From: Escherichia coli
GTDB lineage: Bacteria; Pseudomonadota; Gammaproteobacteria; Enterobacterales; Enterobacteriaceae
Length of the DNA: 64,000 bases
NCBI RefSeq assembly: GCF_003334335.1
Contig: NZ_QOWQ01000027.1
Reading direction: 5' to 3' (one strand)
Below are positions 62,561 through 62,763 of the stretch, piece after piece (the stretch's first letter is position 1; every line of letters starts with the position of its first letter). The notes beneath the pieces are model-generated. The model was not told where the DNA came from and did no database searches. It saw nothing but the letters and a program-made list of their open reading frames with translations. Both the position numbers and the translations under genes were made by a program.

Positions 62561-62586
62561 GGGGAGTCACCAGCTCCCCTTTTTTT
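62561..62586 (+). terminator. Rho-independent terminator in the convergent intergenic region downstream of the YkgJ-like gene
   Basis: GGGGAG-TCACCAG-CTCCCC followed by TTTTTTT. Confidence 0.6.
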
Positions 62587-62763
62587 ACTGCATTATCAGA
62601 GCGGCCAGCACACAGAATGTCACCACACCACCCAGCCATACAAACAGCATGAAGCACATCGCACCCGCTGTGTATTTCCGCCTTCCGCATCTGATTTTTT
62701 TCTGTTCCATTCTCACTGCCACCGTTCAACTCTCATTACCCGACTCACGAATATGCATTCCGG

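Follow-up and report, generated by a model that had tools for sequence, protein, structure and literature searches.

The minus-strand interval 62585-62710 of the window, by which we mean the whole 64,000-nucleotide stretch of Escherichia coli DNA that was analysed, very probably constitutes a genuine protein-coding gene of 41 codons, as judged from its pattern of conservation. In the reading that explains the observations best, to which we assign a probability of roughly 0.6, this gene would be the P-EibE copy of the ORF-60/PHROG 9340 family, placed last in a moron cassette of three genes at the right end of Eib-type lambdoid E. coli prophages, and its product would be a membrane-embedded accessory protein that binds a partner. 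The preliminary description of this DNA had drawn attention to a 21-aa ORF on the same strand, running from ATG 62650 to TAA 62587-62585, encoding MLFVWLGGVVTFCVLAALIMQ and beginning 113 nt past the stop (62764) of the upstream gene, orf-156. These sequence facts were confirmed, but the delimitation was not: the ATG chosen there is the internal Met21 of the longer gene, which itself begins 53 nt past orf-156. The expectation that a small membrane peptide might have been missed proved apt. PGAP did not call the gene in the RefSeq records examined, including the record identical to the window, and nothing is annotated between orf-156 and the next gene in GenBank AF151676 (P-EibE). What appears to be a real small membrane-protein gene has been skipped by standard annotation though maintained by evolution, and the analysis replaces the earlier delimitation with a corrected gene model (41 codons, start 62710) and a defined three-gene unit. 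The PHROG 9340 family is already catalogued, as hypothetical; the copy in the window is an unannotated member and has an N-terminal variant of its own. The features are listed in Table 1.

Table 1. Features of the small-gene region in the window, ordered by position.
Feature	Position	Strand	Basis
5'-terminal remnant (83 bp, starting MDEKQLQAL) of a transposase gene of the IS1414/IS256 family, truncated at 62482	62400-62482	+	
dinI-like gene remnant, last ~17 codons (..SFADSEAWETADDWFIQ*)	62498-62551	+	
Hairpin GGGGAG-tcaccag-CTCCCC + T7, canonical intrinsic terminator	62561-62586	+	scan
Small gene (very probable), 41 codons + TAA, product MEQKKIRCGRRKYTAGAMCFMLFVWLGGVVTFCVLAALIMQ	62585-62710	-	ORF, homologues, selection
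21-aa ORF, start = internal Met21, C-terminal half of the 41-codon gene	62585-62650	-	ORF listing, alignment
Translation-initiation region of the small gene	62711-62723	-	sequence; 5' variants of relatives
orf-156E, 157 aa, upstream partner of the small gene (the 'LuxR-like' gene of the preliminary description)	62764-63237	-	annotation; PHROG 6585
eibE terminator hairpin	63271-63300	-	
eibE 3' part, YadA-like immunoglobulin-binding trimeric autotransporter, first cassette gene, cut by the window end	63324-64000	-	

The start of translation was examined in the window copy and across the relatives. ATG 62710, which yields 41 aa, is the start common to the relatives; it is preceded by the Shine-Dalgarno-like motif GGTGG (62719-62723) with an 8-nt spacer, and GAGA stands directly before it. 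The earlier remark that no convincing Shine-Dalgarno sequence is present holds for ATG 62650, which lacks a purine-rich motif of this kind, but does not hold for ATG 62710. The frame remains open upstream to GTG 62722-62720, an alternative start that would give a 45-aa form in the ORF listing. Three codons before this GTG the window copy carries a TGA, and it is without the in-frame 17-codon extension behind the 60-aa ORF call made in some relatives. In every divergent 5' variant a purine-rich motif (AAGGTG, AGGGG, GGTAGAG, AGGT, GGGAG or GGGAAG) is located 3-10 nt before the shared Met. When a collection of 15 billion proteins was consulted, the exact 41-aa product was present among public gene calls, and the 21-aa and 45-aa versions were absent. 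By size the bare 21-aa ORF is not unusual, the window holding 372 ATG-ORFs of 20-60 aa.

Conservation of the frame in homologous regions, which the preliminary description had named as one way of checking the ORF, came out in favour of coding. Through orf-156 alone, we fetched 22 loci at 68-99% identity, 18 of which extend beyond orf-156, and an intact small ORF was found in all 18 loci with downstream DNA. Comparison of the window with seven variants over 30 gap-free C-terminal codons gave pS values of 0.50-0.88 and pN values of 0.10-0.22, with pN/pS ratios of 0.17-0.37 and binomial P values from 1.5e-2 to 2e-6 for the substitution pattern, whereas the same DNA read in the two shifted frames gave pN/pS of 0.9-4.8. 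Among 11 distinct sequences, the variable columns were distributed over the three codon positions as 13/9/27. Some of the loci in the selection test had been retrieved by means of a protein profile or a back-translated pattern, and such retrieval introduces a bias to protein conservation over 11-13 core codons; the orf-156-anchored variants (L003, L004, L009/L037 and L029), which are free of this bias, gave the same result. Over the 12-codon core, L029 differs from the window by 3 synonymous codons and 1 non-synonymous codon, and L009/L037 by 4 synonymous codons and no non-synonymous one. The sense frame is intact in 16 of 16 variants, and every other frame is broken in some of them. The codons for Y13-F20, upstream of Met21, change synonymously (TAC/TAT, ACA/ACC, GGT/GGC/GGA, GCG/GCA/GCT, TGC/TGT and TTC/TTT) with the protein kept, from which it follows that translation must begin upstream of Met21. 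ATG 62650 is this invariant Met21 in all relatives.

The ends of the frame were informative as well. At least eight unrelated N-termini are found in the family (MEQKKIRCGRRKY, MMNKERCRTIGRKRY, MMNKDKCRMYGRKRY, MKQANLKYVKKRY, MNRDKTSEYSRKRY, MSSSGNQTRKKQRY, MTEEKCRYRKKRF and MSSGYVKKRSY), and in each version a Met stands 16-18 codons ahead of GAMCF, a segment rich in K/R is present and a purine-rich motif lies upstream. At the other end, the stop codon keeps its position, and at least four unrelated downstream sequences start directly after it. Phage mosaic junctions that coincide with the ends of the frame are as expected of a gene. On this comparative evidence, purifying selection has kept the frame, its length, the start region and the stop position, and in all cases the gene follows closely behind orf-156.

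The product matches PHROG 9340, a 43-position profile, at E 2.3e-14, with residues 11-45 aligned to profile positions 9-43. ORF-60D matches the same profile at E 9.6e-30 over its last 43 residues only. That the two match over this span indicates a conserved unit of about 41-43 aa, not of 60 and not of 21. ORF-60A, ORF-60C and ORF-60D of P-EibA, P-EibC and P-EibD are annotated at the homologous place in their records (AF151091, AF151674 and AF151675, respectively) and share with the window copy an identical GAMCFMLFVWLGG core, the stop position, the place after orf-156 and eib, and a predicted single helix. They differ from it in the N-terminus, which is MMNKERCRTIGRKRY in these copies and MEQKKIRCGRRKY in the window, and in having been called as 60-aa ORFs through the in-frame 17-codon upstream extension. 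In PhiR5_1 and similar newer phage genomes, a 57-aa 'hypothetical protein' is given at the place of the small gene. Members of the family have a 39-43-codon frame, a basic N-terminus, the invariant core and a place after orf-156 behind a YadA-like eib gene, and all of these were found in the window copy. Relatives retrieved by phmmer were 65-95% identical and formed 16 clusters in 5.8 billion proteins.

We then considered the properties of the predicted protein. Its first 13 residues have a net charge of +5; a single hydrophobic helix is predicted for residues ~14-40, after which only Gln41 remains. The 19-aa Kyte-Doolittle mean reaches 2.51 (residues 21-40), which ranks first among the 372 small ORFs of the window, only three of which attain a mean of 2.3. 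With 41 aa and one predicted transmembrane helix, the product falls within the class of small inner-membrane proteins of fewer than 50 residues. Following the positive-inside rule, it is likely to cross the inner membrane once in an N-in orientation, so that its basic N-terminus would be cytoplasmic and its C-terminus would lie at the periplasmic face. Neither a lipobox nor a cleavable signal peptide was recognised on reading the sequence, as the protein has no [LVI][ASTVI][GAS]C motif and nothing after the helix. The invariant positions are M1, Y13, G16-G27 (GAMCFMLFVWLG), V29, A36 and A37; the invariant intramembrane core comprises 13 residues (GAMCFMLFVWLGG), and the stop comes 25 codons after the Met of MCF. 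The half of the helix near the cytoplasm is fixed on all its faces despite near-saturated synonymous change, whereas the outer half is merely hydrophobic. The second most hydrophobic small ORF of the window, MWYLLWFVGILLMCSLSTLVLVWLDPRLKS (30 aa, 53005-53097, minus strand), gave the hydropathy screen an informal positive control; we take it to be AppX (YccB), the small subunit of cytochrome bd-II and a real small membrane protein, which fits its hya-app neighbourhood.

The small gene was found in a constant genetic context. A stretch of 283 bases around the ORF is 100% identical to AF151676, the record of 'bacteriophage P-EibE' from strain ECOR-9, and the end of the window lies within the right arm of a lambdoid E. 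coli prophage that has tRNA-Ser and the hya operon as neighbours. The order YadA-like gene, orf-156 and small ORF was observed in every locus with sequence available, and it is the same in IS-flanked, non-prophage contexts and in the most divergent member, P0021, which again lies beside hyaA. In L012 the ATG of the small gene overlaps the stop of orf-156 (ATGA), in L045 the two genes are separated by a 5-nt gap, and in P-EibD a TGATG overlap opens the 60-aa form. Such overlaps and the short gap suggest translational coupling. A scan of 61900-63400 revealed no promoter-like site on the minus strand, and only ~30 nt (63238-63270) lie between the eibE terminator and the ATG of orf-156. Given the lack of such a site and the 53-nt gap between the two genes, the small gene would be transcribed together with orf-156; with the short distance to the terminator also taken into account, both genes probably depend on read-through of the eibE terminator and would be expressed at a low level. 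The cassette is virulence-associated, the Eib proteins being immunoglobulin-binding, chain-forming adhesins of commensal and Shiga-toxin-producing E. coli, and the RcsB-like regulator gene and the small membrane-protein gene are candidates for the control of Eib expression. No further gene separates the small ORF of L045 from a tRNA-Ser-like 3' end. Four predicted viral contigs of IMG/VR (L024, L025, L026 and L028) end exactly at the orf-156 stop and so cut off the small ORF; this looks like a boundary artefact, produced when prophage- or gene-based trimming takes no account of a small gene that is not annotated.

The upstream gene had been described as LuxR-like, a resemblance that was seen in the predicted fold, which recalls the NarL/FixJ type, but was weak at the level of sequence. 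ORF-156 gave no match in Pfam or NCBIfam, and a profile search against PDB sequences returned weak matches to LuxR-family HTH/GerE domains, with E about 0.07. Its AF2 model (pLDDT 89.5) resembles full-length RcsB as the top match, along with DesR, LiaR, EvgA and FixJ; the match probabilities were up to 0.99, but with E values of 1e-3 and TM scores of 0.3-0.48. From this model, ORF-156 is predicted to have the fold of an atypical, shortened NarL/FixJ-type response regulator. D52 is invariant at the end of strand 3, and the acidic pair after strand 1 is missing (T7-R8-N9), which points to an atypical receiver that probably functions independently of phosphorylation. At about 50% identity, homologues of orf-156 exist in other E. 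coli islands without the small ORF and without eib (L054, 4001-4495; L055, 2658-3152), one of them beside hpa genes in an AT-rich stretch and another beside genes for PapB-like and Hha-like regulators. These solitary homologues argue that orf-156 and the small gene are not obligate partners and that the small gene is confined to the Eib-linked subfamily. They would fit the idea that the orf-156 family consists of stand-alone transcription regulators.

On the basis of its conservation, we propose that the small protein would be an accessory or regulatory subunit embedded in the membrane, binding either itself or a conserved membrane partner. Contact would be made through the invariant half of the helix in the cytoplasmic leaflet (GAMCFMLFVWLGG), and the protein would not be a toxin but would work for the adhesin/regulator cassette. 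A role as a partner-binding accessory rather than a toxin is held tentatively, at somewhat less than an even chance; the proposed mechanism is drawn from the conservation pattern with its invariant 13-residue intramembrane stretch, and conservation of the helix on all faces would also fit a homo-oligomer or a pore. AcrZ, MgrB and MgtS act by packing a helix against a larger membrane protein. Together with SafA they resemble the small protein in size class (<50 aa for AcrZ, MgrB and MgtS), in having one helix and almost no soluble domain, and in conservation mainly within the membrane segment; the likeness is one of functional analogy only, as there is no sequence relationship and the gene studied here is prophage-borne and tied to a cassette. 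One may speculate that a regulator gene and a small membrane-protein gene downstream of an adhesin gene make up a control module. In a more specific and fairly unlikely version, the trio of eib, orf-156 and small ORF would be a self-contained mobile adhesin module, in which the 41-aa protein acts as a 'connector' that either anchors ORF-156 at the membrane or links it with an envelope sensor of the host (such as Rcs or EvgS/PhoQ) and so times the display of Eib. Movement of the cassette outside prophages, the coupling to orf-156 in some variants and the RcsB-like fold of ORF-156 can be cited for this version, which, if true, would mean a new class of prophage-carried small-protein regulator.

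Downstream of the small gene, the 21-aa ORF had been said to end at the base of an intergenic hairpin, and it does so: the arms GGGGAG and CTCCCC lie at 62561-62579. On the minus strand the hairpin comes right after the stop of the small ORF and is without a U-tract. On the plus strand it is an intrinsic terminator which, judged from its position, serves the convergent dinI-like gene. Related prophages (L004, L005 and L012) have this gene in full, converging on the small ORF. In the window the small ORF is intact though the dinI-like gene is destroyed, the remainder of it having been lost at the junction with the IS remnant. Of 5426 complete E. coli genomes, 3959 contain a match to the 83 bp of this remnant, with 91-100% identity. 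A YkgJ-family cysteine-cluster gene (62056-62406, plus strand) lies between the prophage end and tRNA-Ser (61830-61914, plus strand), and in L012 a YkgJ-like gene is on the other side of the eib cassette.

Alternatives to a 41-codon gene of the Eib cassette were weighed. It is very unlikely that the ORF arose by chance or represents non-coding spacer, its conservation being due to recent shared ancestry, to an RNA element or to an opposite-strand gene. Such an origin would suit an ORF that is short and not annotated by PGAP, whose complementary frame is open in most variants and whose core nucleotides are nearly identical among the closest relatives. However, the peptide is conserved while synonymous sites approach saturation (pS up to 0.88) and the shifted frames are unconstrained, and the variable columns are biased to the third position (27 versus 13 and 9). 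L012 and L047 carry interruptions of the antisense frame, and no variant has one in the sense frame; Rfam gives no match; and the start region and the position just past the stop are precisely where the mosaic junctions occur. A gene on the opposite strand, in the form of the 100-aa plus-strand ORF at 62502-62804, was rejected, since its frame is broken in the same two loci and the substitutions fit the minus-strand frame only. Even less credence is due to the view that the 21-aa ORF starting at ATG 62650 is itself the translated unit. That ATG is invariant and 21 residues would still form a helix, but no SD-like motif precedes it, Y13-F20 are under selection at the protein level, the upstream Met is the one taken as start by gene callers and the PHROG profile, and the 21-aa product is missing from the 15-billion-protein collection.

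The preliminary description had also raised the idea of a type I toxin, which fared poorly. Stated in full, the product would be a type I-toxin-like or holin-like membrane-damaging peptide, possibly SOS-linked, with read-through from the dinI side giving an antisense RNA over the small ORF; we regard this as unlikely. It is true that the product is small and very hydrophobic, as type I toxins (TisB, DinQ, Hok, Ldr and Ibs/Sho) are, that a dinI-like gene of SOS type converges on it in several relatives with only the shared hairpin between them, and that conservation of the helix on all faces could suit an oligomeric pore. The product is also close in size to TisB and DinQ, two type I toxins linked to the SOS response. 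On the other hand, neither homology to these toxins nor any toxin or defence match was obtained in Pfam (E<=10 for the 60-aa relative), NCBIfam (E<=1), PADLOC or the PHROGs families of named function, the first three of which gave no match of any kind for the small protein. An Rfam search of 61400-64000 at a permissive E yielded no sRNA over the ORF, only tRNA-Ser and two sub-threshold chance matches elsewhere, and no promoter-like site was detected on the opposite strand. The dinI-like neighbour is absent in the P-EibD type, L009, the L018/L020 types, L045 and L047, and in the window the small ORF has stayed intact despite reduction of that neighbour to ~17 codons. Unlike typical toxin loci, the gene follows closely behind or overlaps a protein gene of the same orientation, orf-156, without a long structured leader or a promoter of its own; and the charged segment of the product is N-terminal and basic, with nothing after the helix. 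As the flanks after the stop differ among relatives, a conserved flanking antitoxin RNA gene is hardly to be expected there; the upstream side of the small gene is orf-156 coding sequence, and an antitoxin RNA might lie wholly inside the ORF. We give next to no weight to identification of the protein as a CcmD-type 'heme exporter protein D', a name that one public source attaches to P0070, a 41-aa member of the cluster to which the window's protein belongs. The two share a short FVWL-containing hydrophobic stretch, FMLFVWLGGVV in the small protein resembling YAFFVWLAVVM in E. coli CcmD. But no Pfam model, PF04995 included, matched the 60-aa relative at E<=10 and no NCBIfam model matched at E<=1, hhalign gave a probability of 40% over 15 columns, no ccm genes are nearby in what is a prophage adhesin cassette context, and CcmD has 69 aa with a long charged C-terminal tail, as against 41 aa and nothing after the helix. 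The name looks like an automated misannotation prompted by the short FVWL-containing stretch.

The preferred reading, a small membrane-protein gene that closes the eib cassette, places the window copy in a tiny family seen only in E. coli, in which nothing points to an unusual mechanism. Every member with a source name comes from this species, and a degenerate back-translated pattern had 0 matches when searched in one genome per species (GTDB). Among 5426 complete E. coli genomes, 66 carry family genes, frequently in multiple copies, as do 12-13 phage records. In the literature, a full-text search found no 'ORF-60' in the texts on Eib proteins, and in those parts of the recent Eib literature covered by a term search the downstream ORFs went unmentioned, 'downstream' occurring only in unrelated uses. 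A profile search of 1.84 billion representatives returned only 10 matches, several of which were frameshifted fragments. In P0020, P0022 and P0023, which are metagenomic or assembly gene calls, the C-terminal half of the helix has been lost by frameshift or fusion (e.g. ...FVWLGGVQNSTFPVV...), and these may be pseudogenes or assembly errors.
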